Virus record (IMG/VR): IMGVR_UViG_2923339551_000004
DNA from: a virus
Taxonomy: Duplodnaviria; Heunggongvirae; Uroviricota; Caudoviricetes
Strand: one strand, 5' to 3'
Length of the DNA: 60,308 bases
Shown one piece after another: positions 20,558 to 52,294 of the stretch. The notes beneath the pieces were generated by a model. That model searched no databases and was not told where the DNA came from. It saw nothing but the letters and a program-made list of their open reading frames with translations. Within the stretch, counting starts at the first letter, position 1. The number at the start of each line of letters is the position of its first letter. The position numbers and the translations under genes are program-made.

Positions 20558-20712
20558 TACATGAGTCAATCCCGAAAGAACTATTTGATTTCACTTAGCT
20601 TTGTGGTTTATATATCTACGCAACTCCTATCACTGCAATACTTTCTGCAATACAGATATGTGTAGTGAGGACTTGTCTAAAAACCATATTCACGAAGAAA
20701 AAGGATGACACG

Positions 20713-21876: not shown

Positions 21877-21880
21877 AATA

Positions 21881-22429
21881 ATGGAGGATATGGGATATAC
21901 TTCTATTGAAAGTATGTTTAATAACTATAAGTGTTATTATGATTTTCTTCTAACTCATAATGAGATTAGTTTTGCTAATGATTACAAATCACAATTTTCA
22001 AAAGTAATGCTATTAGCATGTGCTAGCTATTTTGAAACTTTAGTTGTAACTAAGATACATTGTATGCTTAACCCAAGCCAATGTAATCTTACACACGATT
22101 TTATCGATAATAAGGCCCTAACCAGGCAGTATCATACACTCTTTGATTGGAAAAAAAGGAATGCAAACCAGTTTTTTTCCTTTTTTGGCCCAAAATTTAA
22201 AGAGTTTATGATTGAGAAGGTAAAATCAAGCACAGAGTTGACCAAGTCTATCTCTGATTTTATGGAAATCGGAGAGCTAAGAAATAAATTAGCACATAAT
22301 AATTATGCTACTTTTGTATTAGAAAGCACAGCTGAAGAGATTTATAATAAATTTTTAAATGCACATTCATTTGTCTCTCAACTAGATACGTTCAGTACAC
22401 AGTTTAGAGAGCAAATTGGTGAACAGTAA
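21881..22429 (+). CDS. hypothetical protein, possible HEPN-like partner of the DUF262 gene
   Basis: Start ATG 21881 preceded by ggaggga, 5 nt after the DUF262 stop; C-terminal motif ELRNKLAHNNY fits the Rx4H HEPN pattern; motif-level evidence only. Confidence 0.45.
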   Translation: MEDMGYTSIESMFNNYKCYYDFLLTHNEISFANDYKSQFSKVMLLACASYFETLVVTKIHCMLNPSQCNLTHDFIDNKALTRQYHTLFDWKKRNANQFFSFFGPKFKEFMIEKVKSSTELTKSISDFMEIGELRNKLAHNNYATFVLESTAEEIYNKFLNAHSFVSQLDTFSTQFREQIGEQ

Positions 22430-22466
22430 TAGTTTATCTCCAGCAAAAAAATAACTTGCAAATAAT

Positions 22467-22493
22467 AAAAGCGGTCGCGTGACCGCTTTTTTC
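22467..22493. terminator. bidirectional intrinsic terminator between convergent genes
   Basis: aaaagcggtcgcgtgaccgctttttt: hairpin flanked by an A-run and a T-run. Confidence 0.7.
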
Positions 22494-22687
22494 TATTTAT
22501 CATTGCTATTTTCCTTTATTATTTCAGCAATTGACATAACTAAGGCGTCTGCTTTATTTCTAGTCCTATCAAACATATCTCTAATTACATCAATATAATA
22601 ATGTTCCTCAAAAATATTTACGTATGACAAAAGTATTGCACAACTCTTGCCCAAAATGTCAGCCAGTTGATCTTTGTTGACTTCCAT
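22493..22687 (-). CDS. small ORF with a Nu1-like N-terminus (first ~15 aa) fused to unrelated AT-rich sequence
   Basis: MEVNKDQLADILGKS... versus helper Nu1 MEVNKKQLADIFGAS...; sits next to the satellite cos. Confidence 0.4.
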   Translation of the reverse strand: MEVNKDQLADILGKSCAILLSYVNIFEEHYYIDVIRDMFDRTRNKADALVMSIAEIIKENSNDK

Positions 22688-22699
22688 TGTTCATTCCAC

Positions 22700-22920
22700 G
22701 GACAAAAACAGAGAAAGGAAACGACAGAGGCCAAAATGCCCGTTTTCAGCGCCTGTCATTTCCTTTCTTTTCAGGGGGTATTTTAAATAAAAACATAAAG
22801 TTACGGCGAAGAAGAACGGAAATGCCTTAAACCGGAAAATTTCCATAAATAGAGAAAAACTGCGCGCCTGACGCCCCGTAGCCTGTCAGATCGCCGGAAA
22901 GGACCCGCCAGCCAGAGCGG
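22700..22920 (-). other. satellite cos region: lambda-like terminase-binding segment with a divergent cosN
   Basis: ~85-90% identity by eye to helper cos 38060..38290 over the terminase-binding segment; the cosN-equivalent 12-mer (22865..22876, cgcctgacgccc) differs from the helper (aggtcgccgccc) at 5 positions. Confidence 0.75.
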
Positions 22921-22932
22921 GCCCTAATTTCA

Positions 22933-23316
22933 TCAACCAATCAGCTTATAGCGACCATCCCGTGCATTGCGGCGTACACGCTCAATCTTGAGGCATAGCG
23001 CCGCATCTGGCTTTTTTGGGACAGGTACGCGGCAATATTCAGAAGCGCGAGGAATATTATTTATCCAGTCGATCACTTCACTTAAATACCAGGCCTTACG
23101 CCCTTCCGTAACCTGCACACGCTCCGGGAACTCTCCACTAGCCTCAAGGTTTAGCAGTGTACGCCGACTCAGGGTTGTAATTTCCATCACCTGATTCATA
23201 TCAACAAGGCGCTCGCTTAAACACATTTTGTCAGCGATAGCTTTTAATTCCTCTACAGCTGGATTCGGGTACATCATTTCGGCAATTGGCTTAAGGTCAT
23301 TGTAATCATTCTGCAT
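22933..23316 (-). CDS. AlpA-like HTH DNA-binding protein
   Basis: Central segment MEITTLSRRTLLNLEASGEFPERVQVTEGRKAWYLSEVIDWI resembles AlpA/Xis-type HTH; start uncertain. Confidence 0.55.
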   Translation of the reverse strand: MQNDYNDLKPIAEMMYPNPAVEELKAIADKMCLSERLVDMNQVMEITTLSRRTLLNLEASGEFPERVQVTEGRKAWYLSEVIDWINNIPRASEYCRVPVPKKPDAALCLKIERVRRNARDGRYKLIG

Positions 23317-23327
23317 TGTATCCCCCT

Positions 23328-23669
23328 TTACACACGAGCCAGCGGCTGAACAGAAATACCTGAGCCAACAAACGCGGCAACCTTTGCCGACAGTTCTCTT
23401 ACAGACTCAGGCCAGTTCAGAGCATCAACATTTAAAACACCTGTCTTATAAACCTGTGCCTGTGTTTTTTTCGCTGTGTCGATTTGTACAGCGGAAACAT
23501 AAACCGCTTTGCCTGCGCTCGTTCCATCCCATACCACTAGCGCACCAGTTGCATCTTCCTGCATCAGTGGCGTAAACGCAGGTATTACCCCTTTATTGGC
23601 TGAAAATATCCCCAGCGTAGTAACCAGTGCTTCAGTGCCAGACATGAGTTCAGTGTAATGAGTAGCCAT
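23328..23669 (-). CDS. head decoration protein D homolog (divergent), satellite-encoded
   Basis: 113 aa; recognisable similarity to lambda D (VVWDGTSAGKAV versus [13 protein letters not shown]), far more diverged than the helper D at 32164..32496. Confidence 0.7.
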   Translation of the reverse strand: MATHYTELMSGTEALVTTLGIFSANKGVIPAFTPLMQEDATGALVVWDGTSAGKAVYVSAVQIDTAKKTQAQVYKTGVLNVDALNWPESVRELSAKVAAFVGSGISVQPLARV

Positions 23670-23678
23670 TGCTCCCCC

Positions 23679-24719
23679 TTAGCCAATGCGAACGGTAACA
23701 AAACGATTGATGCGGGCCGGTATTGGCTGTGGTGCTGAATGTGTCTGCACATATTCAATAGCCGGATCACCAGGCACAATATAGTTTTTCGGTGCAAGTT
23801 CGGCTTTAGTCAGCCCCATTCGGATTAGCTCCGGATCCTGAATACCGCCATAGGCGACAATCCCCTGAAGAGCCGTATTGCCAAGCACCATCAAATCAGG
23901 ATCAAGGAAATGTTTTTCAGTTCCGTCCTCGTCGGTATAACGCCCGCTGTATACAACAATCGCAACATCGCCCATATACCCTTTAAAACTCACCGAATCA
24001 CCAAGGTCTTTAAGGGCCGTTTCCAGTTCGGAATTAGAACCACGACGGGTATCCAGAGCCTCTTTTATCGCTCTGAATGAACGGTATTTCTTCCATACAT
24101 TACCGCCCATAATGATGATATTAGTGACGCCCTCACTAAATTCTGCGTAGCTCTCAATATCATCATTTGGATCAAAAGTTTCTTTATCCTTACCTGACCA
24201 CTCAGCACCGCCAGACTGAGTGATGATATTTTGTGGTTTAATATTCCAGTCCAGCTCATAACGTTCAATACCATCGCCCTCAATGATATTTTTCCCCGTT
24301 GTGATTGCCTGAACGGCAAGCCATTCAATACGTGCACGAATAGCTTTAGCCTGATTTACAATCGCCTGTTTAACTTTAATATTACGCGCTCCAAAAGCAT
24401 TGTATTGCTCAGGTGATACACCAGCAGGGCGCACAGCTAACTTATTTGGATCAATGCTGCTTTTCGGCTTCATATAGCCTGGACGAATTGTTTTTGATTC
24501 GTACCCTTCGTCACGTGAAACTTTACTACCCACCATAGGAGAACAAAACGCTGCAATTGGGATATTTGGATCGTCGATTGTATCAAGAATAATATCGCGC
24601 GATTCAAACATTACCGAGCGAGTAAAAAACAAACTGGTAAACAACGCATTTAGTTGTTTTTGTACATCTACAGCATTAACCACCTGTACAAGCTGGGTAG
24701 GCGAATATAAATCAACCAT
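23679..24719 (-). CDS. major capsid protein E homolog (divergent), satellite-encoded
   Basis: About half the positions shared with lambda E over the C-terminal part (TRRGSNSELETALKDLG, GDVAIVVYSG); start at ATG 24719 with aagagg RBS (track ORF begins 24893). Confidence 0.8.
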   Translation of the reverse strand: MVDLYSPTQLVQVVNAVDVQKQLNALFTSLFFTRSVMFESRDIILDTIDDPNIPIAAFCSPMVGSKVSRDEGYESKTIRPGYMKPKSSIDPNKLAVRPAGVSPEQYNAFGARNIKVKQAIVNQAKAIRARIEWLAVQAITTGKNIIEGDGIERYELDWNIKPQNIITQSGGAEWSGKDKETFDPNDDIESYAEFSEGVTNIIIMGGNVWKKYRSFRAIKEALDTRRGSNSELETALKDLGDSVSFKGYMGDVAIVVYSGRYTDEDGTEKHFLDPDLMVLGNTALQGIVAYGGIQDPELIRMGLTKAELAPKNYIVPGDPAIEYVQTHSAPQPIPARINRFVTVRIG

Positions 24720-24936
24720 ACGCATCCTCTTTGCATTCATTAAAAATAATTGTGGATATATGCTATCACCGATATTTGTCATGCGAATACATGCAACCGA
24801 GTGCAATGTTGTATAAAGTTTTGGGATGACAACTTCAGCACGGATAATTAGTGTTAATATCTTCACTCCCTTTGGTCTGGATTTATGTAGCATGCCGGAA
24901 AATTTATTTTTTTCCGGCCTTTTTTATTGGCAATAT

Positions 24937-25386
24937 TTAAAGCGGAATATCATCTCCCCATTGCTCATTATCTCCCACTGGTGGATGGCTTCCTTGCTGA
25001 TCTGCCTGTTGTTTTGCTCTGTTCAGTGCGTCAGTAGCCTGCCCCTGTTGGCCTTTTTTGCCGCCCGGTCGCACCGATCGCGCACTGATTACGCTGTCTG
25101 CGATAACCTGCCAGCCCTGCCGCGTTTCACCGTTCTGTCCAGTCCACTGGCTCACCTGCATATTACCCGCCACGCTCAGGAGTTCGCCTTTGTGATGCTT
25201 TGCCAGCGTGTCGGCTTGTCTGCCAAACGCCAGCACAGATAACCACATCGTCGCCGTTCCGTCATCTGCCTGGCTGCATGGCAAAGATACCGCCATCCAT
25301 GCCAGTGTCATGGGTGTTCCCTTGCTGGTATGTTTTACCTGTGGGTCGTCCACCAGCCGCCCGTAAGCTGCTATTTGCGCCGTCAT
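24937..25386 (-). CDS. single-stranded DNA-binding protein-like (SSB-like)
   Basis: 149 aa; OB-fold-like N-terminus, Gly/Gln-rich tail and terminal DDIPL resembling the SSB C-terminal DDDIPF. Confidence 0.6.
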   Translation of the reverse strand: MTAQIAAYGRLVDDPQVKHTSKGTPMTLAWMAVSLPCSQADDGTATMWLSVLAFGRQADTLAKHHKGELLSVAGNMQVSQWTGQNGETRQGWQVIADSVISARSVRPGGKKGQQGQATDALNRAKQQADQQGSHPPVGDNEQWGDDIPL

Positions 25387-25397
25387 GCTGCCTGCTC

Positions 25398-25640
25398 TCA
25401 GGACTTAATATTGATGGTTGTCACTTCCTCCGCTTCGGCAATCTCCCGTTCGGTCAGCGTGGCAAAGTTTGCAGCCGCCGTTGTCATGAATGCGCTTATC
25501 AGTTCGGGATGTGCTTTCGCGTATCCTTCCCCGGCGTTGCGGTCTATTGCCTTAATCGCCACCCTTAGCCAGTGTTCAGCCATATCAAGGGCGCGGTAAT
25601 GTGGCTTTATATGTTTGTTCAGTTTTCCTGATGTGTGCAT
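25398..25640 (-). CDS. hypothetical protein
   Basis: 80 aa ORF between the origin and the SSB-like gene. Confidence 0.4.
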   Translation of the reverse strand: MHTSGKLNKHIKPHYRALDMAEHWLRVAIKAIDRNAGEGYAKAHPELISAFMTTAAANFATLTEREIAEAEEVTTINIKS

Positions 25641-25685
25641 TTTTATTTTTACCCCCTCGTTTAAAAAGTTTTTTGTGCACCACCA

Positions 25686-25918
25686 CCTTGTCTACCTTGT
25701 CTACCTGATTAGTTATCAGGCCAGTAATGGCGCGGGTTTCAGGGAGGTAGACAGCCCCAAATAGCTGTCTACCTCATCTCTACCCGTCTCCTTACCTGTC
25801 TACAAAAATGGGTAGATAAGGTAGATAACAGGTAGACAGTGAAAAATAGTTATCTACCTGCATTAATACATTGAAATAAAAGTATTTTATTTCAGTCAGG
25901 TAGACAAGGTAGATAACC
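25686..25918. repeat. iteron array, putative satellite replication origin
   Basis: At least 11 copies of GGTAGA(C/T)A / T(A/G)TCTACC in both orientations, irregularly spaced, immediately 3' of the primase/helicase gene. Confidence 0.75.
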
Positions 25919-25929
25919 ATTGCCATTTT

Positions 25930-27681
25930 TTATAAAAACGCATCGCAATCATCAGTAGTCGTTGCGTTGGTCTGCGTGACTCCCTTAACTTTTCGAGTAA
26001 TATATTCATATCCGTAAACTTTCGCCGCTGACCTCATAGCCTTTCCGAACTCATTCACGCTCAAACATTTCCCCTTTCCTGTATATGCCATGAAGGCCAT
26101 ATAGACACGGTAAAGGCTGTTTCTGGTCGTGTACTTCACGGTGTCACCACCACCGCCCATCATTAGCCCACGAGCTTCCTCCAGAAACTCCAGCGCCGCG
26201 CAAAGCTCAACAACCGGATCCGTTTGCTGCTTTATTGCCAGAGCTTCATCACCGTCACGCTGTTCCAGTAATAAAGCCCGTGCCTTTTCAGGGTCAGCAA
26301 AATTAGCCAGCAAGCGGCGGATAATTACGGGGATTTCTGCCGCTATCTTTTCCGGTAATTCCTTGTCTTTTTCGTCCTCCCTTACAATGTTGTCGAACCG
26401 GAAAATCACCCGACGGCGTGACACACCTCCGGCCCGTTCGGTAAAGATCATCGGGTCGTTATTGGTTGCCAGTACCACCGCCCTTATTATCGTCGTGAAT
26501 CGCTTCTCATATTTCGGGTTAATTTCAACGGGATCGCCTCCCGTGATTTTCTTGATGCCCGTGCCTTCCCCCGTATATTTCGGCTGATCGGCAAGGACGA
26601 TAAGACGACTCCCGACAACCTGCGCACGCCCTCCTGCATCATCGAGTGATGTCATCTCTGCGCTTACGGTGTTCTGTTTGCCAGCAAGCAGGGTGGCAAT
26701 ATGGGTAAATGTACTCTTACCGCTTCCCCCGTCTCCGGTGGCCTCAATGAACATCTGCCAGTCGTACCGGTTCGCCATAATCATGTACAGCGCGGCACAT
26801 ATACGCATCATCTTGCGCGGGTCTTTTCCGGCTGCGTGCTCAAGCCATTTATGAAAGTTTGGCGCGTTATCGCGGATGTTCTCCCCTGGTGCTGGTGGCG
26901 TGTACTCAATGCCGTTGTGCGTGGTGATCCAGTTCTCCGGCGTGTGCGGGGAAAATTCCCCCGTTTTCAGGTCAAGCGCACCATTGGCGAACGGCAGCAA
27001 ATCGCCGGACGGCTCGCCCATTGGTTCGGCAATAACTTTTAACGCTTCAACGGCGTTATTGATCACGCGTTTGCTGAAAGTGGCCCTGTGCTCTGAATAG
27101 ATCGCCACCATTTCGCGGCTCAGCTCCATTGTGCTGATCGGACACCATACCCCGCCGCGCCATACGTGAACGATTTCACTTTCCGGATGCACACAAACGC
27201 CATCAAAGCGCTCGGCAAGCAGCTGCGCGCGCTCACTGTCTGCCATCTGTGAAAGTTGCGCCTTTTGCTTCGTCGGAAGATTAAGCACCAGGCTTTCCCC
27301 ACGCTCGCATTCCTCTTTGAGTCGCGGCAACTGGTCGGATAAATCCACTGGGCTGGTGTCAGTAATCCCCGCGTATTCGTGTACGGTCTTCACTCCAGCC
27401 ACAGCCAGTAACGTAACAATCTGCGTCATGCTGTGCTCTGTGATATGTCCTGCGCGGTAAACACGCACACACTGACGATCTTCATCAATGATCCGGTAAT
27501 CGGTGATGTTTTTCAGTTGCTCATCAGCCAACACGACAGGCGGCACATCGTCGGCGGCAATATGTTTACCCGCCCATTCCTGCCACTCTTTCGCATGGCT
27601 CCACGCATCACTACCTGCAAAGATGATTATCTCTGTCAGTCTGTCGCGTGGCTGTTTTTTTAAGTTCGGTGCCAGTTTCAT
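25930..27681 (-). CDS. replication protein: primase/helicase (P4 alpha / D5-like SF3 helicase family)
   Basis: 583 aa; Walker A EATGDGGSGKSTF; sits next to the iterons. Confidence 0.75.
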   Translation of the reverse strand: MKLAPNLKKQPRDRLTEIIIFAGSDAWSHAKEWQEWAGKHIAADDVPPVVLADEQLKNITDYRIIDEDRQCVRVYRAGHITEHSMTQIVTLLAVAGVKTVHEYAGITDTSPVDLSDQLPRLKEECERGESLVLNLPTKQKAQLSQMADSERAQLLAERFDGVCVHPESEIVHVWRGGVWCPISTMELSREMVAIYSEHRATFSKRVINNAVEALKVIAEPMGEPSGDLLPFANGALDLKTGEFSPHTPENWITTHNGIEYTPPAPGENIRDNAPNFHKWLEHAAGKDPRKMMRICAALYMIMANRYDWQMFIEATGDGGSGKSTFTHIATLLAGKQNTVSAEMTSLDDAGGRAQVVGSRLIVLADQPKYTGEGTGIKKITGGDPVEINPKYEKRFTTIIRAVVLATNNDPMIFTERAGGVSRRRVIFRFDNIVREDEKDKELPEKIAAEIPVIIRRLLANFADPEKARALLLEQRDGDEALAIKQQTDPVVELCAALEFLEEARGLMMGGGGDTVKYTTRNSLYRVYMAFMAYTGKGKCLSVNEFGKAMRSAAKVYGYEYITRKVKGVTQTNATTTDDCDAFL

Positions 27682-27977
27682 TTTTTGCCCCTGAATGCGT
27701 TAATCATGCTTTTCATTTTCTGGATGTTTCCCCGCGCTTTTTCCCTGCTGATGGGCTTACTACGGGGTGCGGCATATACCAGGGAAAAATCACGCCGGAA
27801 CTGATAAACAGGCATCACGCAGTCATAGCTATACCCCTCACGACGGTAAGTGATGCGCCGTTCTGCCACGCCTTTAATCGTTACCGTGCCGCCGTATTTA
27901 TCGCGGTAAATATCGCCGTTCATAAATTCAGGCCGAGCGGGGCCGCTGGCAATAAAGCCAGAATTTTTCATTTCCAT
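27678..27977 (-). CDS. hypothetical protein (replication-operon small ORF)
   Basis: 99 aa; stop overlaps the primase start (27678..27681). Confidence 0.45.
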   Translation of the reverse strand: MEMKNSGFIASGPARPEFMNGDIYRDKYGGTVTIKGVAERRITYRREGYSYDCVMPVYQFRRDFSLVYAAPRSKPISREKARGNIQKMKSMINAFRGKK

Positions 27978-27994
27978 ATTATTTATTCCTCGAC

Positions 27995-28216
27995 TTAACT
28001 CGACTTATTTGATAGCAGGGCACTATTTATTGCGTCATTGAGTTTTTCTGCTGCTTCATCAATAAGTGACAACAGGCCATAAGCAATATTTGCATCTTCA
28101 TTGTCATTTATGCAATCAAGCCACATATTTAATATTGCTTTTGCTGAATTATTTAAAGTTAATGAACTTTCTGCACATGCTAACAATTTAAAAAAGACTT
28201 CCCGTTCTGTATTCAT
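27995..28216 (-). CDS. hypothetical protein
   Basis: 73 aa ORF, AT-rich. Confidence 0.35.
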   Translation of the reverse strand: MNTEREVFFKLLACAESSLTLNNSAKAILNMWLDCINDNEDANIAYGLLSLIDEAAEKLNDAINSALLSNKSS

Positions 28217-28408
28217 TTAATCCCCCACCAGCTTACTTTCTTCCTCAATCAAAAAACTAGCGACACTTCCCGAAAGACGCGCCAGTAGGCTCGCCAGTGC
28301 GGATATATCAGCATCTGTAATTTTGTTCGGGTATACCTCAAGAAGGCGGCAAATAATTTCTGTCTGGTGCGCACGTTCAGCGGCTTCGTGTAATGTGATT
28401 TCCTGCAT
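28217..28408 (-). CDS. hypothetical protein
   Basis: 63 aa ORF abutting neighbours. Confidence 0.35.
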   Translation of the reverse strand: MQEITLHEAAERAHQTEIICRLLEVYPNKITDADISALASLLARLSGSVASFLIEEESKLVGD

Positions 28409-28593
28409 TAATGCACCTCTTTTAATTCATACACTGCTGAAATAATGACTTGTGATAAGCCATATTCTGATGATTCGCTTCTCACCGCAGCAATAGCCGT
28501 CTGAACATTAACAGCCTTCACATTCTGAGCGATACCAATTGTGTGGCCTATTGGGTTAACAGCTCGGGCAAATACACGGAAGGTTTTAAGCAT
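28408..28593 (-). CDS. hypothetical protein
   Basis: 61 aa ORF abutting neighbours. Confidence 0.35.
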   Translation of the reverse strand: MLKTFRVFARAVNPIGHTIGIAQNVKAVNVQTAIAAVRSESSEYGLSQVIISAVYELKEVH

Positions 28594-28787
28594 GACTCAC
28601 TCCCTGGCGGATTTTTGCAGCGAATACAGCAACACAACCGGACGGGCAACGGCTACGCGCTTCGCGTTCCGTCCAGGCGGTTACGTGGATGATTTGAGAT
28701 TCTCCGGCACTCAGTGCCAGAAAACGCCACACAAAGGCCGTTTGTGTGTGTACAAGGTGTGGTATATGATTTACAGCAACCATAACG
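28587..28787 (-). CDS. hypothetical protein, first gene of the leftward satellite operon
   Basis: 66 aa from ATG 28787 with aggag RBS; below the 60-aa track cutoff as a separate ORF because it is embedded in the spurious 28586..29317 frame. Confidence 0.4.
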
Positions 28788-28973
28788 GCTCCTAGTTTAC
28801 GTTGTTGGTTAGACGCCCCGTATGTGTTCCCAGCACTGCGGGGCGTTGCTCTTTGTATTTCAACAATCCTTTCGGTGTGTTTCATGTTATGAGCGCATGA
28901 AACACACGTCAAGGCTTTTTGTATTTCTTTTTTTGTGTATACTGAAACACACCGATGATTAGGAGTTTCAGAA

Positions 28974-29279
28974 ATGGCAACGGCTAACAAAAACGCAAAA
29001 TCACAACTGACAACTGTCAGAGTCCCACTAGATGTTATGCAAGGGATGGAATCCGTTAAGCTGGACGGTGAAAGCAATGCCGGATTTATCGTAACCGCCA
29101 TGCGCGGTGAAATCGCCCGCCGCCAGGCAGAAGGAAGCGGAGAAAATCCCCTCGTGTCTTCACTGGATGCCTTAGCTAAGGTCGAACAAATCGGCATCAA
29201 GGCAGCGGAGGAAATCGGGCAACTCGTAGCCGTCGCTCGTGAAGAACTCCAGCGGCGTAAAGCCAAAGAATCTGAATAA
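28974..29279 (+). CDS. hypothetical protein, divergently transcribed from the replication operon (possible regulator)
   Basis: 101 aa; RBS aggag upstream; divergent arrangement typical of a satellite control region. Confidence 0.45.
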   Translation: MATANKNAKSQLTTVRVPLDVMQGMESVKLDGESNAGFIVTAMRGEIARRQAEGSGENPLVSSLDALAKVEQIGIKAAEEIGQLVAVAREELQRRKAKESE

Positions 29280-29629
29280 TTAGTATCAGCGCCGTGATGT
29301 GAGTAACTACGGCGCATTGCTATGTAAATACTGGCAATAAACAGAAAAGGTAGTTCTACTCCGAATAATTTTATCTGACACTACTCCTGAACTAACATGC
29401 GCTTATCTTACAGGATATAAATATAAATCCATAAAATCACGATTAAATAAAGTCGCTCCAAACATAAACCACACCCAACGCTTAACAAGATAGCAACAAA
29501 CAGGTAAATAACTTGCAGAAATATTTATCGCAAGGATTATCATTATTAATGACAAATCACTTTACCAAGTCATTCCCCTCTCTTATCATAAAGAGAAAGT
29601 AATAAATAAGTTAAGGGAGTTAGAATGCT

Positions 29630-30166
29630 ATGAATCTAAAAAAAATAGCCACAAACACAAAAAACAAGATAACAGAAACATTTAATAAACTTATATTAGA
29701 GGCATCTAAAACCCCCACGCAAGATGAAATTAAAATACTTGAGAGAAGGAGTAAGAAGTTTAATTACTCCTTTTTCTCATACGCAGTCACAGGAGCTATA
29801 ATAGTTTTTTGCTCTCAACCATTAATTAAATACGCAAACCCAATACTTATTTTATTGAGTGGTCTGTTACTGTCTATCATCATTATCATTCTCAGAATGA
29901 TTTATATTTCACAAGCGAATGCATCATGGACAACCAAAAAACGCTCACATGTACTAGTTCATTTTCTTTCTGCATGTTTCATAGCATCAACATTGACGTT
30001 GCTATATCAGGCTTACGATAATAACATCACACACAAATTGTACTGTAAAAATATACAACAACTTATTGAAAAAAGGATAGAAACAGAAAAAAACATCAGC
30101 ATATTCAGTGGGATGCAATGCACCCCGGTATATGATTACTCTTTATTTGGATTTAATCTCTTATAA
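29630..30166 (+). CDS. AT-rich predicted membrane protein
   Basis: 178 aa; two strongly hydrophobic segments (AIIVFCSQPLI, ILILLSGLLLSIIIIILRMIYI); very low GC; aagggag RBS. Confidence 0.5.
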   Translation: MNLKKIATNTKNKITETFNKLILEASKTPTQDEIKILERRSKKFNYSFFSYAVTGAIIVFCSQPLIKYANPILILLSGLLLSIIIIILRMIYISQANASWTTKKRSHVLVHFLSACFIASTLTLLYQAYDNNITHKLYCKNIQQLIEKRIETEKNISIFSGMQCTPVYDYSLFGFNLL

Positions 30167-30235
30167 AGAATGTTATTACTGATTTGAGTACAAATTCTCA
30201 AATCAGTAATTCATAATATTTTATTCTGAGATAAT

Positions 30236-30472
30236 TTAAACTACCCACTCACCTCGAATCCATGCCTGCACTTCTGAAAGACGATATGCAACAGCAGTGG
30301 AACCAATCTTGATCCGCTTAGGAAATTTTCCTTCCTTCTCCAGCTTCCAGCGTGTGCTGTTCGCAAGAGTGGTTAGCTCCCGACATTCTTTCTCACGGAT
30401 CATTCGGTCAATGTTAGGAATGTACTCCAGACCCTTTTTATCAACAATTGCCATTTTTTTCATGTTAACCAA
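30236..30472 (-). CDS. alpA: AlpA-family transcriptional regulator / excisionase-like
   Basis: 78 aa, ...ELTTLANSTRWKLEKEGKFPKRIKIGSTAVAYRLSEVQAWI; directly downstream of the integrase. Confidence 0.7.
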   Translation of the reverse strand: MVNMKKMAIVDKKGLEYIPNIDRMIREKECRELTTLANSTRWKLEKEGKFPKRIKIGSTAVAYRLSEVQAWIRGEWVV

Positions 30473-31700
30473 CCTTTTGTTTGAGGATTGTCACTTTTGA
30501 ATCAGCACCTGCGATGCTATTGAGATATGTAGTCCAGAGTTCCAGAGCATCCAGTTTTTTAGCCATAAACTTACTCCGGTTGTAAACACCTGCCACGCCA
30601 GGTAGCGCATGGCCTAACAGTTGTTCTACTACATAAAATTCAACACCGAGATCACTTAGATGAGTAGATAGCGTTCTTCTAAGGTCGTGTAGTGACCATT
30701 GTTTTTCATGGCCCAAACGTTTACCGATTTTCCCCCCAATCTTGCTTACGCTTTCTCTAATTCGCAGACTTCCCAGCACATAACCAGTATGTTTTGTCTC
30801 TTCGTGAACATCCGTTACCCACTGTCGTAGAATTTCAGGTACTGGTCTGACGATTTCAACACCAGTTTTTGAGTGATCTTTTGGTACAGTCCAAACCCAA
30901 CTTTCGAGATCCCATTCGCTCCATTCTGATAATCGGGCTTCACTCATTCGACATCCAAATACTGTACAAAGCACAAACATTTTTCGCGTGTATTCAGACA
31001 TTAGTTTTAAATCAGGCTCGACAAAAATTGCCTTCCAGAGCTGGCCGAGTTCGGCTTCATCCAGAACCCGATCCCGCTTACCTGCAATCTGCCCCACATC
31101 ACTCATGCGCAAATCCTTTAAAGCATCACACGTCGCGTACTGGCGTACCCGACAAAAACGAAGAGCTAATTTAGTGTCAGAAAAAACATACGCCGCCATA
31201 ACTGGTGCATTACGTTTAATTCGGTCAAAACAGTCCAGCCATTCATATAGGTGAGTGTCATTTACGGGCAAATGACCGATATAGGGAAAGATATGCTTTC
31301 GAAATCTGCCAAGCGTTACAGCATGAGTTTTACGACGCACCTTACAGTAATTTTCATACCAGTAATTTAGTGCATCCTCCACTGTAACCGGCTTTAAGCG
31401 TTCTTCAGCCTGAATCTTAATCTGGATACGCGGATCACGTTTGTCAGCCAACCAACCACGGCACTCGTCGCGCTTTTCCCTTGCCTGTTTGAGTGACATA
31501 TCAGGATATTTACCCAACGTTAGCCAGACCGGAGCAGCCCGGCCACCTGCTAACCTGTAGAAGAAAACAAAGCTCACAGCCCCTTTAGTACTCACACGAA
31601 TAGAAAGCCCCTTTCCATCAGCAATGGTGATCTGCTTTTCTCTGGGTTTCCCCAGATATCCTTTAAGCGCTTTGTCGCTCAGTTTGTTCTCGCCAGCCAT
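30465..31700 (-). CDS. int: tyrosine recombinase / integrase (P4-type), satellite
   Basis: C-terminal catalytic region with HDLRRT and LLGH...Y motifs; start placed at MAGENKL (track ORF extends to 31751); adjacent to the att repeat. Confidence 0.85.
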   Translation of the reverse strand: MAGENKLSDKALKGYLGKPREKQITIADGKGLSIRVSTKGAVSFVFFYRLAGGRAAPVWLTLGKYPDMSLKQAREKRDECRGWLADKRDPRIQIKIQAEERLKPVTVEDALNYWYENYCKVRRKTHAVTLGRFRKHIFPYIGHLPVNDTHLYEWLDCFDRIKRNAPVMAAYVFSDTKLALRFCRVRQYATCDALKDLRMSDVGQIAGKRDRVLDEAELGQLWKAIFVEPDLKLMSEYTRKMFVLCTVFGCRMSEARLSEWSEWDLESWVWTVPKDHSKTGVEIVRPVPEILRQWVTDVHEETKHTGYVLGSLRIRESVSKIGGKIGKRLGHEKQWSLHDLRRTLSTHLSDLGVEFYVVEQLLGHALPGVAGVYNRSKFMAKKLDALELWTTYLNSIAGADSKVTILKQKVG

Positions 31701-31832
31701 TTTTAGCCCCAAAAAGCAATACAAGCTGCAATACAGAGATGATTGCAACACACAGATAACGAGGAAAATTCAGTGAAAGCACCAGATAAACTTATTCTTT
31801 ATTATCAAAAGATTAAGTGTAAAAACCAGCAA

Positions 31833-32108
31833 CTACACGAAAGCCTCAGAAAGCCATGCTAAGTGCTTGGGTTTGACATATCCCGGCGTAAATTCAGAGG
31901 TGGAGCCGCCACGGGAACGGATAACCTCACCGGAAACAATCGGCGAAACGTACAGCGCCATGTTTACCAGTCCCGGAATTTGTGAGAGATAGACTTTCTC
32001 CGTAGTGAAGGGATAGCTCTCACGGAAAAAGAGACGCAGAAACAGCGGATCAAACTTAAATTTCTGCTCATTTGCCGCCAGCAGCTGGGCGGTTGTGTAC
32101 ATCGACAT
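31833..32108 (-). pseudogene. E: major capsid protein E, N-terminal fragment (82 aa) fused to 9 satellite-encoded codons
   Basis: MSMYTTAQLLAANEQKFKFDPLFLRLFF...GYVKPKH then LAWLSEAFV and stop; breakpoint at the KPKH codons. Confidence 0.9.
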
Positions 32109-37532: not shown

Positions 37533-38052
37533 TCAGCAACCCCGGTATCAGTTCATCCAGCGCGGCTGCTTTGTTCATAGCTTTGATGATATCCCGTTTC
37601 AGGAAATCAACATGTCGGTTTTCCAGTTCCGGAAAACGCCGCTGCACCGACAGGGGGATCCCGTCGAGAATACTGGCAATTTCACCTGCGATCCGCGACA
37701 GCACGAAAGTACAGAATGCGGTTTCCACCACTTCAGCTGAGTCTCTGGCATTCTTCAGTTCCTGTGCGTCGGCCTGCGCACGCGTAAGTCGATGGCGTTC
37801 GTACTCAATAGTCCCTGGCTGCAGATCTGTCTCGCTGGCCTGCCGCAGTTCTTCAACTTCCCGGCGCAGCTTTTCGTTCTCAATTTCAGCATCCCTTTCG
37901 GCATACCATTTTATAACGGCGGCAGAGTCATAAAGCACCTCATTACCCTTGCCACCGCCTCGCAGAACGGGCATTCCCTGTTCCTGCCAGTTCTGAATGG
38001 TACGGATACTCGCACCGAAAATGTCAGCCAGCTGCTTTTTGTTGACTTCCAT
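37507..38052 (-). CDS. Nu1: terminase small subunit Nu1
   Basis: 181 aa, MEVNKKQLADIFGASIRTIQNWQEQGMPV. Confidence 0.95.
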
Positions 38053-38149
38053 TGTTCATTCCACGGCCAAAAACAGAGAAAGGAAACGACAAAGGCCCAA
38101 AAGTTCGTTTTCAGCACCTGTCGTTTCCTTTCTTTTCAGGGGTTATTTT

Positions 38150-38290
38150 AAATAAAAACATTAAGTTACGACGAAGAAGAACGGAAACACCTTAAACCGG
38201 AAAATTTTCATAAATAGCAAAAACCCGCGAGGTCGCCGCCCCGTAACCTGTCGGATCGCCGGAAAGGACCCGTAAAGTGATAATGATTAT
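38150..38290 (-). other. cos: helper prophage cos site, with the 12-nt cohesive-end sequence at 38230..38241
   Basis: aggtcgccgccc is the reverse complement of the lambda cohesive end GGGCGGCGACCT; flanked by cgtaacctgtc (lambda right end). Confidence 0.9.
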
Positions 38291-38996: not shown

Positions 38997-39290
38997 ATGA
39001 AAAAAATGTTGTTTTCTGCCGCTCTGGCAATGCTTATTACAGGATGTGCTCAACAGACGTTTACTGTTGGAAACAAACCGACAGCAGTAACACCAAAGGA
39101 AACCATCACCCATCATTTCTTCGTTTCGGGAATTGGACAGGAGAAAACTGTTGATGCAGCCAAAATTTGTGGCGGCGCAGAAAATGTTGTTAAAACAGAA
39201 ACCCAGCAAACATTCGTAAATGGATTTCTCGGTTTTATTACTTTAGGCATTTATACTCCGCTGGAAGCGCGTGTGTATTGCTCACAATAA
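38997..39290 (+). CDS. bor: Bor lipoprotein
   Basis: MKKMLFSAALAMLITGCAQQTFTV...; lipobox LITGC; start placed at MKKML. Confidence 0.9.
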   Translation: MKKMLFSAALAMLITGCAQQTFTVGNKPTAVTPKETITHHFFVSGIGQEKTVDAAKICGGAENVVKTETQQTFVNGFLGFITLGIYTPLEARVYCSQ

Positions 39291-40492: not shown

Positions 40493-41064
40493 AACCCCAC
40501 CTCGCAGACAAAGCGGGTGTAAATTGAGGGAATACTACGAAACGTAACAGACTCGGAGTCAGTGAATAACTCAGGTATTGGGTTATCAGCTAATATCGAG
40601 ACTCAAAAAATGGAAAAACCCGCTCGACGGCGGGTTTAAGCTGTGTGACGAAGTAACCACTCTTAACAGCATAACCAATTTTTTACGTACGTAAACCACT
40701 AAATGATATTTGCGAGAATGCTACCGAGTATTGAAAACACCACTACAAATACATAAGCAAATCTCAACAAATAACCAACAAATAATTTCCAGTGTTATTT
40801 TTAGCTGGTTTAAATTGAACCTTCAAATTATAGAGCACTTATAAATAACAGCCGTTAATATAAATTGGCTAACAGATTTATTTTTATTCAGCCAAGAGCC
40901 ATGAATAGGATTCGATAGAAAAAAGTTCAGATAAAAATAGAGATCTACTTCACAAATCAAACGAGAAACCAAAACTTACATCTTGAAATAATCACATTGA
41001 TTAGATGAATATTTATCGCGCAGTGACATCATTTTTTAATAATAGTTCAAAAAAAGGGCTCACG

Positions 41065-42162
41065 ATGAAAAAATTAACAGTGGCAATTTCTGCTGTAGCT
41101 GCATCAGTACTGATGGCGATGTCTGCTCAGGCAGCTGAAATTTATAATAAAGACAGTAACAAGCTGGATCTGTACGGGAAAGTTAATGCTAAGCACTACT
41201 TCTCCTCTAATGATGCAGATGATGGTGATACTACTTATGCCCGTCTTGGCTTCAAAGGTGAAACCCAAATCAACGATCAACTGACTGGTTTCGGTCAGTG
41301 GGAATATGAATTCAAAGGCAACCGCGCTGAATCTCAAGGTTCCTCCAAAGATAAAACCCGTCTTGCCTTCGCTGGCCTGAAATTCGGTGACTACGGCTCC
41401 ATCGATTACGGCCGTAACTACGGTGTAGCATACGACATCGGTGCGTGGACTGACGTCCTGCCAGAATTCGGTGGTGACACTTGGACTCAAACCGACGTGT
41501 TCATGACTCAACGTGCAACTGGTGTTGCAACCTATCGTAACAACGACTTCTTTGGTCTGGTTGATGGTCTGAATTTTGCTGCTCAGTACCAAGGCAAAAA
41601 CGATCGTAGCGATTTCGATAACTACACTGAAGGTAACGGTGATGGCTTCGGTTTCTCTGCTACCTATGAATACGAAGGATTCGGTATCGGTGCAACTTAT
41701 GCGAAATCTGATCGTACCGACACTCAAGTTAATGCAGGGAAAGTTCTTCCTGAAGTATTTGCTTCCGGTAAAAATGCAGAAGTTTGGGCCGCAGGTCTGA
41801 AATATGACGCTAACAACATTTACCTGGCCACTACCTATTCTGAAACCCAGAATATGACTGTATTTGCTGATCACTTCGTTGCTAATAAAGCCCAAAACTT
41901 CGAAGCTGTTGCACAATATCAGTTCGATTTCGGTCTGCGTCCGTCCGTTGCTTACCTGCAATCTAAAGGTAAGGATCTTGGAGTATGGGGCGATCAGGAC
42001 TTAGTCAAATATGTTGATGTAGGTGCAACCTATTACTTCAACAAAAATATGTCTACTTTCGTTGATTACAAAATCAACCTGCTTGACAAAAATGACTTCA
42101 CTAAAGCACTCGGTGTAAGCACTGATGACATCGTTGCTGTAGGTCTGGTTTACCAGTTCTAA
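41065..42162 (+). CDS. nmpC: phage-borne outer membrane porin (NmpC/Lc-like)
   Basis: Signal peptide [23 protein letters not shown], beta-barrel porin sequence ending ...VGLVYQF. Confidence 0.9.
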
Positions 42163-43320: not shown

Positions 43321-43323
43321 GCC

Positions 43324-43534
43324 TTAATAACCCCCTCTTTCAGCCAGATAACCTGTGTTCTCGCCATACCTTCCAGCGCGCATTCTTTTGCATATGCAGC
43401 ATCGACTTGCTTGGCATGCCCTTTACCGGCAATCTTCTGTATGCGCTAAACCTAGATAGAATCCACTCTGTGCACATTGAAGCCCGCTCTATGCTTCCTT
43501 TCAGGTATTGAAGGGATTGAGATGGGCTAAGCAT
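43324..43534 (-). pseudogene. recombinant remnant: ninF-like start joined to the C-terminal ~25 codons of a ybcO-like gene
   Basis: ORF 43340..43534 begins [10 protein letters not shown] (NinF-like); a different frame ending at 43324 encodes ...[29 protein letters not shown] (YbcO C-terminus) with stops upstream. Confidence 0.55.
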
Positions 43535-43874
43535 TATTGGCCTCCTGCATCAGGAGAAAGACAATCATGGCGGCGCGGAGAGGTCTGGCATCAAATATTG
43601 GGCTTACGCCTTTTGCATCCACACACCATTCAGTTAACTGGTCTAAGATAGAAATCCTGTATTTCTCAATAATCGGCCATGAAGCGCTCGGATCATTGCA
43701 GTAGTCAGGCAAATGATTTAATGGCTCAAAAGTTGTATCAGCATTTCCGTAATACCATTTGTTGGTGTTATTCCCTGATGTTTCCGGTTTACTTGCCCAA
43801 AGGCCTTTAAAAATTATGTCTCCTACCATTCTGTTAATTTCAAAATCACTTAACTGTGAATAATCCATTGTCAT
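43527..43874 (-). CDS. hypothetical nin-region protein
   Basis: ORF with start [14 protein letters not shown] overlapping the stop of the upstream gene. Confidence 0.45.
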
Positions 43875-44047
43875 TTCCTCGCACGATATCTTAGCCACCG
43901 GATATCCCACAGGTGAGCTGTGTAATTGAAGGTTTTTACGTCAGATTCTTTTGGGATTGGCTTGCGTTTATTTCTGGAGCGTTTCGTTGGAAGGTATTTG
44001 CAGTTTTCGCAGATGATGTCGGTGAAACTTCGTCGCTGTCGCCTCAT
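43871..44047 (-). CDS. ninE: NinE-like small protein
   Basis: 58 aa, [52 protein letters not shown]; ATGA overlap with the upstream stop. Confidence 0.55.
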
Positions 44048-44571
44048 GCCGCCCTCCTGACGCCCTGCCCGATCGCCATCAATGCCGCTTTGGATACGGT
44101 AGTAAACATCCGTCGAGGACTGATGAACGGTCGCCAAATCAGCAGCATGGAGCCTTTGCTGTTTCCCTTCTTCTCCAGCCCTGTCGATGGTTCGATAAAA
44201 TTAATCCGTCCATCAGTGATAATGCGAACTTCGTCGACACTCTCCAGAGCCTTGCTGAACCATCCGACTGACATATCCTCTGGCACAAGCATAACTACCG
44301 TCTGTCGCTGTTGTATGCACTGCTCAGCGGCTTTTTCCACCCACGGCCTGATATTGCTGTACGGTGGGTTATTCCAGATTGCACCGTGGCTTACCCACTC
44401 AGAATTGAGCGCGTCGTCGGCCTCAGTTAGCCAGTGAGCACACAGAGCATTTTTGTCGCTCGCTGCAGAATCCAGCCAGAATCCAAACTCAATATCCAGT
44501 GCATCAAAAAGCCAAAGCGGCGTTTGCCAGCAGTCCTTGTCGTGTGCTGGCGTATTTGATTTGATAGTCAT
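44044..44571 (-). CDS. phage DNA N6-adenine methyltransferase (Dam-like)
   Basis: Motif [12 protein letters not shown] (NPPY); start placed at [20 protein letters not shown] (track ORF extends to 44631). Confidence 0.75.
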
Positions 44572-45008
44572 GCAGCCCGATCTCCCCATCTCGCTTTCCA
44601 CTCCAGAGCCAGTCTCGCTTCGTCTGACCACTTAACGCCACGCTCTGTACCGAATGCCTGTATAAGCTCTAATAGCTCCGCAAATTCGCCTACACGCATC
44701 CTGCTGGTTGACTGGCCTATTACCACAAAGCCATTCCCGGCAAGGTTAGGAACAACATCCTGCTGCTTTAATGCTGCGGTAAACACACACTTCCAGCTTT
44801 CTGCATCCAGCCAGCGACCATGCCATTCAACCTGACGAGAGACGTCACCTAAGCAGGCCCATAGCTTCCTGTTTTGGTCTAAGCTGCGGTTGCGTTCCTG
44901 AATGGTTACTACGATTGGTTTGGTTGGGTCTGGAAGGATTTGCTGTACTGCGTGAATAGCGTTTTGCTGATGTGCTGGAGATCGAATTTCAAAGGTTAGT
45001 TTTTTCAT
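44568..45008 (-). CDS. ninB: recombination protein NinB
   Basis: MKKLTFEIRSPAHQQNAIHAVQQILPDPTKPIVVTIQ... Confidence 0.95.
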   Translation of the reverse strand: MKKLTFEIRSPAHQQNAIHAVQQILPDPTKPIVVTIQERNRSLDQNRKLWACLGDVSRQVEWHGRWLDAESWKCVFTAALKQQDVVPNLAGNGFVVIGQSTSRMRVGEFAELLELIQAFGTERGVKWSDEARLALEWKARWGDRAA

Positions 45009-45081
45009 GACTTCCCTCTCCCCCAAATAAAAAGGCCTGCGATTACCAGCAGGCCTGTTATTAGCTCAGTGATGTAGATGG

Positions 45082-47410: not shown

Positions 47411-47620
<210 letters not shown>

Positions 47621-47637
47621 TTAGTACATGCAACTAT

Positions 47638-47701
47638 TATCACCGCCAGAGGTAAAATAGTCAACACGCACGGTGTTAGATATTTATCCCTTGCGGTGAT
47701 A
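47638..47701. promoter_or_regulatory. OR: right operator OR1-OR2-OR3 with divergent promoters pR and pRM
   Basis: tatcaccgccagaggta (OR1), tcaacacgcacggtgtta (OR2), tatcccttgcggtgata (OR3). Confidence 0.9.
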
Positions 47702-47708
47702 GATTTAA

Positions 47709-48425
<717 letters not shown>

Positions 48426-48552: not shown

Positions 48553-49410
48553 ATGAAGAAAGCAGCAATTTTAATTGATGCGGGTTTTTTCATGCAGCGT
48601 GTTCATGCTACGCATCGTAAACACTTCGCCGAGCATGAACTGACTGCGCAATGCATAATGAAAGTAATATGGTCAATGGTTCTTTCCCATCTTAATGGAA
48701 AACGTCAATCACAAGAACGTAGGGAACCGCTTGAGCTTTATAGAATTTACTTCTATGACTGTCCACCACTCGACATTCAAACACGCCTTCCACTTCCTGA
48801 GCCTGGCAATAAGACGCCTGGTCGCAAGAATTTCAAACTCGAAAAATCATATATTCTGAGAACGGAGCTGCATGAAGAGTTAAGAAAAACTCGAAAAACA
48901 GCCTTAAGATTAGGGAATCTTGTTGATAATAAGCGATGGCAACTAACTACATTCTCCCTTGATGCTCTGATGAAAGGAACGAAAAAATGGGATGAACTGA
49001 CAAATGATGATTTTTACTATGACATCAAACAAAAACAAGTTGATATCAAGCTAGGGATGGATATCACGACTTTAGCTTATGAAAAACTTGTTGATGTAAT
49101 TGTCCTTGTTGCTGGGGACTCAGACTTTGTGCCTGCCGCCAAACACGCCAGAATTAAAGGTATTGATTTTATTCTTGATCCACTAAGACAGAATGTTACC
49201 CCATCACTGTCAGAGCACATTGATGGAGTTCAGTCATACAGCTTGATATCAGGACTTGCCGATGCTTTACATGTTGAGCCAGACCCGGCACCTGACTGGT
49301 GGGAAGATCGAAAAAAAGGCAAGCCTAGGGGAAAAAACAATAGCGGTAAACGCAGGTATGGAAACACTCAAGCTGAGTCTGCAAAGAAACATCAAAGAAA
49401 TAAACGATAA
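48553..49410 (+). CDS. NYN-domain (PIN-like nuclease superfamily) protein with basic C-terminal tail, occupying the rexAB position
   Basis: N-terminal AILIDAGFF, central KQVDIKLGMDITTLAYE and VIVLVAGDSDFVPAA resemble NYN/LabA-like motifs; no similarity to RexA or RexB. Confidence 0.55.
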   Translation: MKKAAILIDAGFFMQRVHATHRKHFAEHELTAQCIMKVIWSMVLSHLNGKRQSQERREPLELYRIYFYDCPPLDIQTRLPLPEPGNKTPGRKNFKLEKSYILRTELHEELRKTRKTALRLGNLVDNKRWQLTTFSLDALMKGTKKWDELTNDDFYYDIKQKQVDIKLGMDITTLAYEKLVDVIVLVAGDSDFVPAAKHARIKGIDFILDPLRQNVTPSLSEHIDGVQSYSLISGLADALHVEPDPAPDWWEDRKKGKPRGKNNSGKRRYGNTQAESAKKHQRNKR

Positions 49411-50789: not shown

Positions 50790-50930
50790 TTAAAAGACAG
50801 GCATACTAATAAACACTGCACTGTGTATTTATTCCAACGAGTGAATACACGGAGCAATGTCGCTCGTAACTAAACAGGAGCCGACTTGTTCTGATTATTG
50901 GAAATCTTCTTTGCCCTCCTGGATTTGCCC

Positions 50931-51836
50931 CTATATTTCCAGACATCTGTTATCACTTAACCCATTACAAGCCCGCTGCCGCAGATATTCCCGTGGCGAG
51001 CGATAACCCAGCGCACTATGCGGATGCCATTCGTTATAATGCTCGAACGCCTCTGCAAGGTTCTTTGCTGCCGTTAACCCGTCTGGTTTGGGCATGATAC
51101 TGATGTAGTCACGCTTTATCGTTTTCACGAAGCTCTCTGCGATTCCGTTACTCTCCGGACTCCGCACCGCCGTGTTCTTCGGTTCAAGTCCCAACATCCG
51201 GGCGAACTGGCGTGTTTCATTAGCCCGGTAGCATGAACCATTATCCGTCAGCCACTCCACTGGAGACGACGGAAGATCGTTGCCGAAGCGGCGTTCCACC
51301 GCTCCCAGCATGACGTCCTGTACTGTTTCACTGTTGAAGCCGCCGGTAGTGACCGCCCAGTGCAGTGCCTCACGATCACAGCAGTCCAGCGCGAACGTGA
51401 CACGCAGTCTCTCTCCGTTATCACAGCAGAACTCGAACCCGTCAGAGCACCATCGCTGATTGCTTTCTTTCACGGCCACTCTGCCTGTATGTGCCCGTTT
51501 CGATGGCGGTACAGCAGGTTTTCGCTCAAGCAACAGCGCATTCTGGCGCATGATCCGGTAAACACGTTTGGCATTGATCGCAGGCATACCATCAAGTTCT
51601 GCCTGTCTGCGAAGCAGCGCCCATACCCGACGATAACCATACGTGGGCAGCTCTCCGATAACATGGTGTATACGGAGAAGCACATCCGTATCATCAGTGT
51701 GACGACTGCGGCGGCCATCCATCCAGTCATCGGTTCGTCTGAGAATGACGTGCAACTGCGCACGCGACACCCGGAGACAACGGCTGACTAAGCTTACTCC
51801 CCATCCCCGGGCAATAAGGGCGCGTGCGCTATCCAC
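50931..51836 (-). CDS. insD: IS2 transposase InsD (OrfB)
   Basis: 301 aa, DDE transposase. Confidence 0.9.
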
Positions 51837-52159
51837 TTTTTTGCCCGTCCATATTCAACGGCTTCTTTGAGGAGTTCATTTTCCATCGTTTTCTTGCCGA
51901 GCAGGCGCTGGAGTTCTTTAATCTGCTTCATGGCGGCAGCAAGTTCAGAGGCAGGAACAACCTGTTCTCCGGCGGCGACAGCAGTAAGACTTCCTTCCTG
52001 GTATTGCTTACGCCAGAGAAATAACTGGCTGGCTGCTACACCATGTTGCCGGGCAACGAGGGAGACCGTCATCCCCGGTTCAAAGCTCTGCTGAACAATT
52101 GCGATCTTTTCCTGTGTGGTACGCCGTCTGCGTTTCTCCGGTCCTAAGACATCAATCAT
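51794..52159 (-). CDS. insC: IS2 InsC (OrfA)
   Basis: [47 protein letters not shown]... Confidence 0.9.
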
Positions 52160-52294
52160 CTGCTCTCCAATGACTAGTCTAAAAACTAGTATTAAGACTA
52201 TCACTTAAATAAGTGATACTGGTTGTCTGGAGATTCAGGGGGCCAGTCTACCTCCAGTGTGAGGGCGATTTTTTATCTATGAGGATATGAATAG

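Follow-up and report, generated by a model that had tools for sequence, protein, structure and literature searches.

An adenine methyltransferase of the phage 'Dam' family, reported to be GATC-specific, at the ninC/ninD position of a lambda-like Escherichia coli prophage

The 60,308-nucleotide stretch of DNA that we analysed, hereafter called the window, is a prophage of the lambda type that is integrated into an E. coli chromosome, its integrase adjoining ybhC, and between its ninB and ninE genes it encodes a full-length member of the phage N6-adenine methyltransferase family. We hold with high confidence the reading that, taken as a whole, this gene encodes an orphan GATC methylase, carried as a cassette in the nin region and expressed in connection with induction, which would top up the Dam enzyme of the host. 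In this account the family, the motif, the predicted fold, the identity, the orphan status and the operon layout were computed; the GATC specificity and the induction-linked expression were taken from the literature; and the biological role is what we infer.

The initial annotation had assigned a Dam-like methyltransferase to positions 44044-44571. This interval proved to be exact, and the gene, for which no strand had been given, is an intact ORF of 528 bp (175 aa) on the minus strand, reading from an ATG at 44571-44569 to a TGA at 44046-44044. The features of the gene and of its surroundings are collected in Table 1, and they include a GGGGAG sequence within the end of ninB that is a candidate ribosome-binding site of the Shine-Dalgarno type for the methyltransferase gene.

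Table 1. The methyltransferase gene and associated features (positions are those of the whole window).
Feature	Position	Strand	Basis
N6-adenine DNA methyltransferase CDS	44044..44571	-	RefSeq WP_000153280.1; identical to VT2-Sakai NP_050531.1, deduced to be M.EcoVT2Dam
NPPY codons (N68-P69-P70-Y71), predicted catalytic motif IV	44359..44370	-	Located in the ORF translation
L33-D34-S35-A36-A37-S38 codons, loop after the first beta strand	44458..44475	-	Conservation and predicted model
GGGGAG, Shine-Dalgarno-like, 10 nt 5' of the methyltransferase ATG, inside the end of ninB	44582..44587	-	Upstream sequence
ninB (recombination protein), upstream gene	44568..45026	-	PF05772 NinB, E 2.3e-54
ninE, downstream gene	43871..44047	-	PF05322 NinE, E 1.1e-41; RefSeq CDS
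Intrinsic terminator between ren and ninB	45033..45056	-	Terminator scan: 8-bp stem with 6 GC pairs, then TTTTATTT
pR-like promoter (TTGACT, 17 nt spacer, GATAAT)	47636..47664	-	Promoter scan, 10/12 matches

A longer form of the protein (195 aa) would begin at a GTG at 44631. We rejected this start: the profiles align from residues 2-4 of the 175-aa form onward, the homologues are ~175 aa in length, the ATG is the start used by both RefSeq and the VT2-Sakai annotation, and the same ATG creates an ATGA overlap of the kind that is typical of nin regions. ORFs on the opposite strand over the gene (43913..44437 and others) were unsupported, and the minus-strand frame accounts for the region.

The initial annotation had recognized an N6-adenine methyltransferase by its NPPY motif, and the motif is indeed present, at residues 68-71. 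Four residues alone could occur by chance; the family assignment is supported by profile matches over the full protein, which carry it beyond the motif. The protein matched Pfam PF05869, "DNA N-6-adenine-methyltransferase (Dam)", over profile positions 1-167 of 169 (E 6.4e-65; 218.4 bits against a curated cut-off of 28.1 bits, in a search that reported matches at E <= 0.01), the NCBIfam equivalog TIGR01712, "phage N-6-adenine-methyltransferase", over positions 1-165 of 165 (265.9 bits against a cut-off of 97.05 bits), and PHROG 111, "DNA methyltransferase" (E 8.6e-88). The PF05869 and TIGR01712 matches are thus full-length and above the curated cut-offs, and the relatives of the protein in the protein collection all carry PF05869. 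The gene product is a small, single-domain, SAM-dependent enzyme of the phage 'Dam' family (PF05869, TIGR01712).

Conservation within the family singles out the same residues. The (D/N)PP(Y/F) motif IV is conserved in the protein, with N68, P69, P70 and Y71 invariant across 41 homologues and in the Dam enzymes of phages HP1 and T1, and L33 and D34 are invariant in the same comparison. In amino-methyltransferases, an NPPY-type motif IV grips the flipped-out target adenine. On the predicted model, residues 68-71 would accordingly be placed as the catalytic motif IV that holds the target adenine, and the loop from L33 to S38, with D34, is the probable equivalent of the SAM-binding motif I.

A phmmer search of the protein against all PDB chains (E <= 10) had as its best match SdiA at E 0.24, which is noise, and no solved PF05869 structure was detectable by sequence among these chains; we therefore turned to a predicted structure. 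The AlphaFold2 model, built with 41 homologues, has a mean pLDDT of 82.6 and a pTM of 0.82, and its alternating strand-helix core has the Rossmann-like fold of SAM-dependent methyltransferases. One strand (31-34) leads into a conserved L-D-x-A-A-S loop (31-38 overall), and another (64-67) leads into NPPY. At 175 residues the enzyme is unusually compact, and the model has no separate target-recognition domain.

Lack of a methyltransferase fold had been named at the outset as the result that would speak against the assignment. When the model was compared with the PDB using Foldseek, the best 25 matches were all SAM-dependent methyltransferases, and most of these, the best ones included, were adenine-N6 enzymes, which argues for such a fold in the predicted structure. 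First came PCIF1/CAPAM (E 3e-4, TMq 0.63), followed by Atu636 and TrmM, and then by E. coli Dam, METTL4, DIMT1/KsgA and Type ISP/IIG enzymes. The closest solved fold, over ~184 columns, is that of PCIF1/CAPAM, a cap-specific eukaryotic enzyme that methylates N6 of adenosine in mRNA (the cap m6Am writer; PDB 6irx and others). It is an adenine-N6 methyltransferase like the window's enzyme, but the two are only 12-15% identical; the crystallized constructs of PCIF1/CAPAM comprise ~480 residues, and this enzyme, whose substrate is capped RNA, has additional domains. The model is clearly nearer to PCIF1/CAPAM than to E. coli Dam (TMq 0.33-0.39).

The most direct indication of specificity comes from phage VT2-Sakai. 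All 175 of 175 residues of the window's protein are identical to those of orf32 (NP_050531.1) of this Shiga-toxin phage, and orf32 is the only DNA methyltransferase annotated there. Radlinska and Bujnicki reportedly cloned the VT2-Sa methyltransferase in 2001 and named it M.EcoVT2Dam. That orf32 is M.EcoVT2Dam can be deduced from its being the sole annotated methyltransferase of the phage, and because the window's protein is 100% identical to orf32, we take it to correspond to M.EcoVT2Dam. For VT2-Sa, M.EcoVT2Dam "is known to target 5'-GATC-3'" (PMC6602927), and VT-2 is listed among the phages in which GATC methylation "has been shown" (PMC7139368), with both papers citing Radlinska & Bujnicki 2001 (PMID 11720311). 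On the basis of these secondary citations and of sequence identity, the window's enzyme would methylate N6 of the adenine in GATC, as reported for its counterpart. The two systems have in common the same 175-aa protein and the same position between ninB and ninE; they differ in that VT2-Sakai is a Shiga-toxin phage, whereas here the gene belongs to a prophage with lambda immunity, inserted beside ybhC at the attachment site of lambda. The identical protein is also found in Phi24B, Stx2 converting phage II and Min27, and a 99% identical one in HK97 and CP-933V (PMC3342100 Table 3).

Two more distant members of PF05869 are HP1 Dam (Haemophilus phage HP1 orf13; E 7e-75) and T1 Dam (coliphage T1 gene 20; E 2e-70), which are 35% and 32% identical, respectively, to the window's protein. 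The three enzymes share 38 invariant positions, including NPPY and D34 of the L-D motif after strand 1, and T1 Dam differs by having 45 additional residues at its N terminus and an insertion of 14 residues. HP1 Dam and T1 Dam are orphan phage enzymes too, come from unrelated phages (a P2-like temperate phage and a virulent siphovirus), and are GATC-specific. Both are called Dam methyltransferases in the titles of references in PMC7556043 and PMC7139368.

The term "Dam-like" in the initial annotation holds for the reported GATC specificity and does not hold for ancestry: the enzyme belongs to the HP1/T1/VT2 family of PF05869 and has no detectable sequence similarity to the Dam proteins of E. 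coli and T4. At E <= 0.01 its only Pfam match was PF05869, with no match to the classical Dam family PF02086 (alpha class), which places it outside that family. Structures of both E. coli Dam and T4 Dam are in the PDB, and neither was matched by phmmer in the PDB chain set even at E <= 10. The structural overlap with E. coli Dam is confined to the core, over ~112 columns at 10-14% identity. What the window's enzyme has in common with E. coli Dam and T4 Dam is its reported product, GATC with m6A, along with a SAM-dependent core of Rossmann-like fold and the (D/N)PPY motif. Among the listed phage enzymes with Dam-like activity (P1, VT-2 and T-even), only those of T2 and T4 are homologous to cellular Dam (PMC7139368).

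An enzyme of 175 aa whose model has no separate target-recognition domain could conceivably methylate adenine outside GATC, or have a relaxed specificity like some other prophage methyltransferases. We judge this to be extremely unlikely, given the 100% identity to an enzyme reported to be GATC-specific and given the HP1 and T1 members of the family, which the literature calls Dam and which are GATC-specific. Non-specific adenine methyltransferases of E. coli prophages do exist, for example M.EcoGI/GII (PMC6602927); the paper on such non-specific enzymes (PMC3299994) makes no mention of HP1, T1Dam or VT2 and does not bear on the PF05869 family.

As for the genomic setting, the initial annotation had placed the gene where lambda has ninC and ninD. 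The order on the minus strand is pR, cro, cII, O, P, ren, the terminator, ninB, the methyltransferase gene, ninE, ninX, a DUF1364 remnant, rusA and Q (DLP12-type), and the order in the lambda record is ninB-ninC-ninD-ninE. At the DNA level, identity to lambda is 99% between cII and the final base of ninB (47052 to 44568); the comparison found no lambda similarity across the methyltransferase gene, and similarity resumes inside ninE, at 95% (44040 to 43874). Because the identity breaks at the end of ninB and resumes in ninE, the placement is correct. The gap is filled by DNA that is 98.7% identical to VT2-Sakai (44578 to 43874), and the sequence comparison points to a cassette that was exchanged for ninC and ninD cleanly at the gene boundaries, in the usual manner of lambdoid mosaicism.

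The gene is packed tightly against both of its neighbours. The TGA of ninB and the ATG of the methyltransferase gene overlap as ATGA at 44568-44571, and the TGA of the methyltransferase gene and the ATG of ninE do the same at 44044-44047. ATGA overlaps are typical of nin regions (PMC8022706), and the gene has the other attributes of such a region as well, lying on the pR strand between ren/ninB and Q.

Two further annotations in the region lie beside each other: an ORF at 43340..43534 on the minus strand, which starts NinF-like, then diverges and has no Pfam match, and a truncated DUF1364 pseudogene called by RefSeq (region 43321..43410). The resemblance at the start of the ORF is, we assume, to lambda NinF, and the interval 43321..43534 looks like the scar of a mosaic junction between lambda/P22-type nin genes and a DLP12-type rusA-Q-porin-lysis module.

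The intrinsic terminator between ren and ninB lies in a stretch that is 99% identical to lambda, at what we take to be the position of lambda tR2; the lambda record has no terminator annotation at that position. Transcription from pR must read through this terminator to reach the methyltransferase gene, the expression of which would depend, from the layout of the operon and by analogy with lambda, on N antitermination. The pR-like promoter, located between a cI-like gene (47712..48425, plus strand) and cro (47411..47611, minus strand), presumably gives rise to the early-right transcript on which the nin genes lie, and the promoter scan found no promoter-like site directly upstream of the gene within ninB or ren. 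Because it lies behind both pR and the terminator, the gene is expected to stay off while the prophage is repressed and to behave as a delayed-early gene after induction or infection. Such a pattern, with expression following induction and silence in the repressed lysogen, would agree with what was seen by qPCR in Phi24B, where clone CM2 'dam', 100% identical to NP_050531.1, was lytic-cycle-linked and changed significantly on induction (PMC3342100).

We consider it very unlikely that the enzyme is instead made in small amounts while the prophage is repressed and has the host chromosome as its substrate, where it would add to or replace host Dam and affect lysogen stability or host genes rather than protect phage DNA. 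An antiserum raised to lysogen cultures recognized the identical protein in Phi24B, and the authors of that work put forward, as speculation, a Dam-supplementing function in lysogens (PMC3342100), but the same study classed its expression as lytic-cycle-linked, that is, as belonging to a spontaneously induced sub-population. Host Dam is needed for stable lysogeny of the Stx phage 933W, according to Murphy et al. 2008 as cited in PMC3342100; in the window, the gene stands behind a cI-repressed pR and a terminator with no promoter-like site of its own in ninB or ren, and in STEC methylomes the phage Dam homologues were indistinguishable from host Dam, with GATC already 99.9% methylated (PMC6602927).

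The description of the enzyme as an orphan was also borne out. The gene is flanked by those for NinB, NinE, NinX and RusA, no endonuclease gene is adjacent, and the best PADLOC matches were to 'oMTase, orphan methyltransferase' (E 3.6e-19). Membership in a defence or restriction-modification system was considered and rejected: after the oMTase models there were only two weak matches to Type II methyltransferases, and a partner gene is absent.

In the mechanism that we favour, the enzyme would move a methyl group to N6 of the GATC adenine, with the base flipped out and held by NPPY 68-71. Having no restriction partner, it would work as an orphan enzyme, and as a delayed-early product it would be made after induction or infection. 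Its most likely role would be to top up host Dam at a time when phage DNA replication outpaces the host enzyme; the progeny DNA might then leave fully GATC-methylated, independently of the Dam status of the host, and resist methylation-sensitive GATC restriction enzymes in the next host. Virions of lambda and P22 contain DNA that host Dam has methylated incompletely, "possibly because replication outstrips modification" (PMC8022706). A selective benefit is not obvious, as E. coli hosts normally already have Dam, and the role of phage Dam enzymes is explicitly described as unsettled in the literature (PMC7556043).

GATC itself is rarer in the window than expected, with 150 sites where base composition predicts 234 and a Markov estimate 260, and it is low in every 5-kb bin. 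This scarcity fits selection on GATC sites, though it is suggestive and does not discriminate between roles. The prophage nevertheless avoids GATC while carrying a GATC methylase of its own.

We also raise, as a long shot, the idea that a post-induction burst of so minimal an enzyme might methylate non-GATC sites or RNA as well, or might reset host GATC at protected regulatory sites. The thought of RNA or non-GATC targets arises because the enzyme has no recognition domain and its closest solved fold is that of PCIF1, an mRNA cap m6A writer. If extra targets or a GATC reset were real, they would amount to a regulatory or anti-defence role so far undescribed.

Damage elsewhere in the prophage bears on whether the gene still serves any purpose. 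An 11.3-kb element disrupts the lambda-E-like capsid gene, IS2 is present in the early-left region, and RefSeq pseudogene remnants occur in the nin region, so that the methyltransferase gene could be a functionless passenger in a crippled prophage, intact only as decay has yet to arrive. We regard this as unlikely: the ORF is intact, with zero amino-acid changes relative to the enzyme of functional phages, and the region of cI, cro, O, P and ninB is likewise intact and 99% identical to lambda. Excision of the inserted element, which encodes an integrase, could restore the capsid gene, and being a passenger would in any case leave the biochemical activity of the protein unchanged. An orphan methylase linked to induction remains our preferred reading, with the proviso that, as the insertion splits the major capsid gene, the enzyme may never contribute to productive phage growth in this strain.

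The 528-bp gene is present, intact and at an identity of at least 95%, in 1565 of 5426 complete E. coli genomes (~29%), with up to five copies per genome, and 201 phage records hold the protein at an identity of at least 99%. The feature is already known and correctly annotated: RefSeq names it "phage N-6-adenine-methyltransferase", curated Pfam, NCBIfam and PHROG families describe it, and the enzyme was reportedly cloned in 2001. It does raise the question of why the phages of Dam-positive hosts so often bring a GATC methyltransferase of an unrelated family, to which the window adds no leverage. Methylome calling or DpnI/MboI assays on such lysogens, especially dam-negative ones, would be expected to reveal a second, inducible GATC methylase.

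Within the window, the insertion in the capsid gene is more unusual than the methyltransferase. It is an integrative element of 11.3 kb (20557..31862) that lies inside the lambda-E-like major capsid gene of the prophage, splitting it so that the C-terminal part lies at 19768..20556 and the N-terminal part at 31863..32108, and it is flanked by a 10-bp duplication, TGCTTGGGTT, at 20549-20558 and 31864-31873. It encodes a P4-type integrase, a D5-type primase (D5_N), an SSB and AlpA-like regulators, together with an E-like capsid gene (23679..24719) and a D-like decoration gene (23328..23669) of its own. The element looks like a phage satellite that integrates into the capsid gene of its helper, and its int/capsid junction was found in 172 of 5426 complete E. 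coli genomes.

The element also carries a 258-bp copy of the prophage cos region, 89% identical by blastn (22650..22907 against 38015..38272), which takes in the beginning of a Nu1-like ORF (22492..22686, minus strand). Only the prophage copy has the 12-mer of lambda cosN in its exact form (GGGCGGCGACCT, 38230-38241); in the copy on the element this sequence has diverged. A cos copy with a changed cosN suggests a hijacking of packaging with an altered nicking site. As cargo, the element has a GmrSD_N (DUF262) protein (20713..21876, plus strand) and a RiboL-PSP HEPN protein (21881..22429, plus strand), and PADLOC matched the pair to NsnA and PD-T4-2_A (E 6e-59 and 2e-38) and to PD-T4-2_B (E 2e-4). 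Judged from these matches, the two genes are likely to form an anti-phage defence system carried on the satellite.

Several other features of the prophage merit mention. Compared with E. coli strain 104, to which it is otherwise 99.9-100% identical in this part, the window has a 1331-bp insertion at 50920..52250 containing overlapping transposase-type ORFs on the minus strand (50931..51836 and 51794..52204), which we take to be InsC/InsD of IS2; this IS2-type insertion maps to the early-left region, where the N side and an ea10-like gene flank it. An intact ORF of 285 aa (48553..49410, plus strand) lies directly downstream of the cI-like repressor gene, presumably at the place of lambda rexA/rexB. 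Its counterpart in strain 104 is annotated by RefSeq as a partial hypothetical protein plus an NYN-domain protein, and the 285-aa ORF has a weak PADLOC match to HEC-09 (E 2e-4); on this evidence it may be a prophage defence or exclusion gene. Finally, the prophage carries genes of the lysogenic-conversion type: an OmpC/NmpC-like porin between Q and the lysis genes (41005..42162, plus strand), the Bor-like serum-survival lipoprotein Iss (about 38997..39290, plus strand), and an outer-membrane protein of the Lom/Ail family (7288..7887, minus strand).
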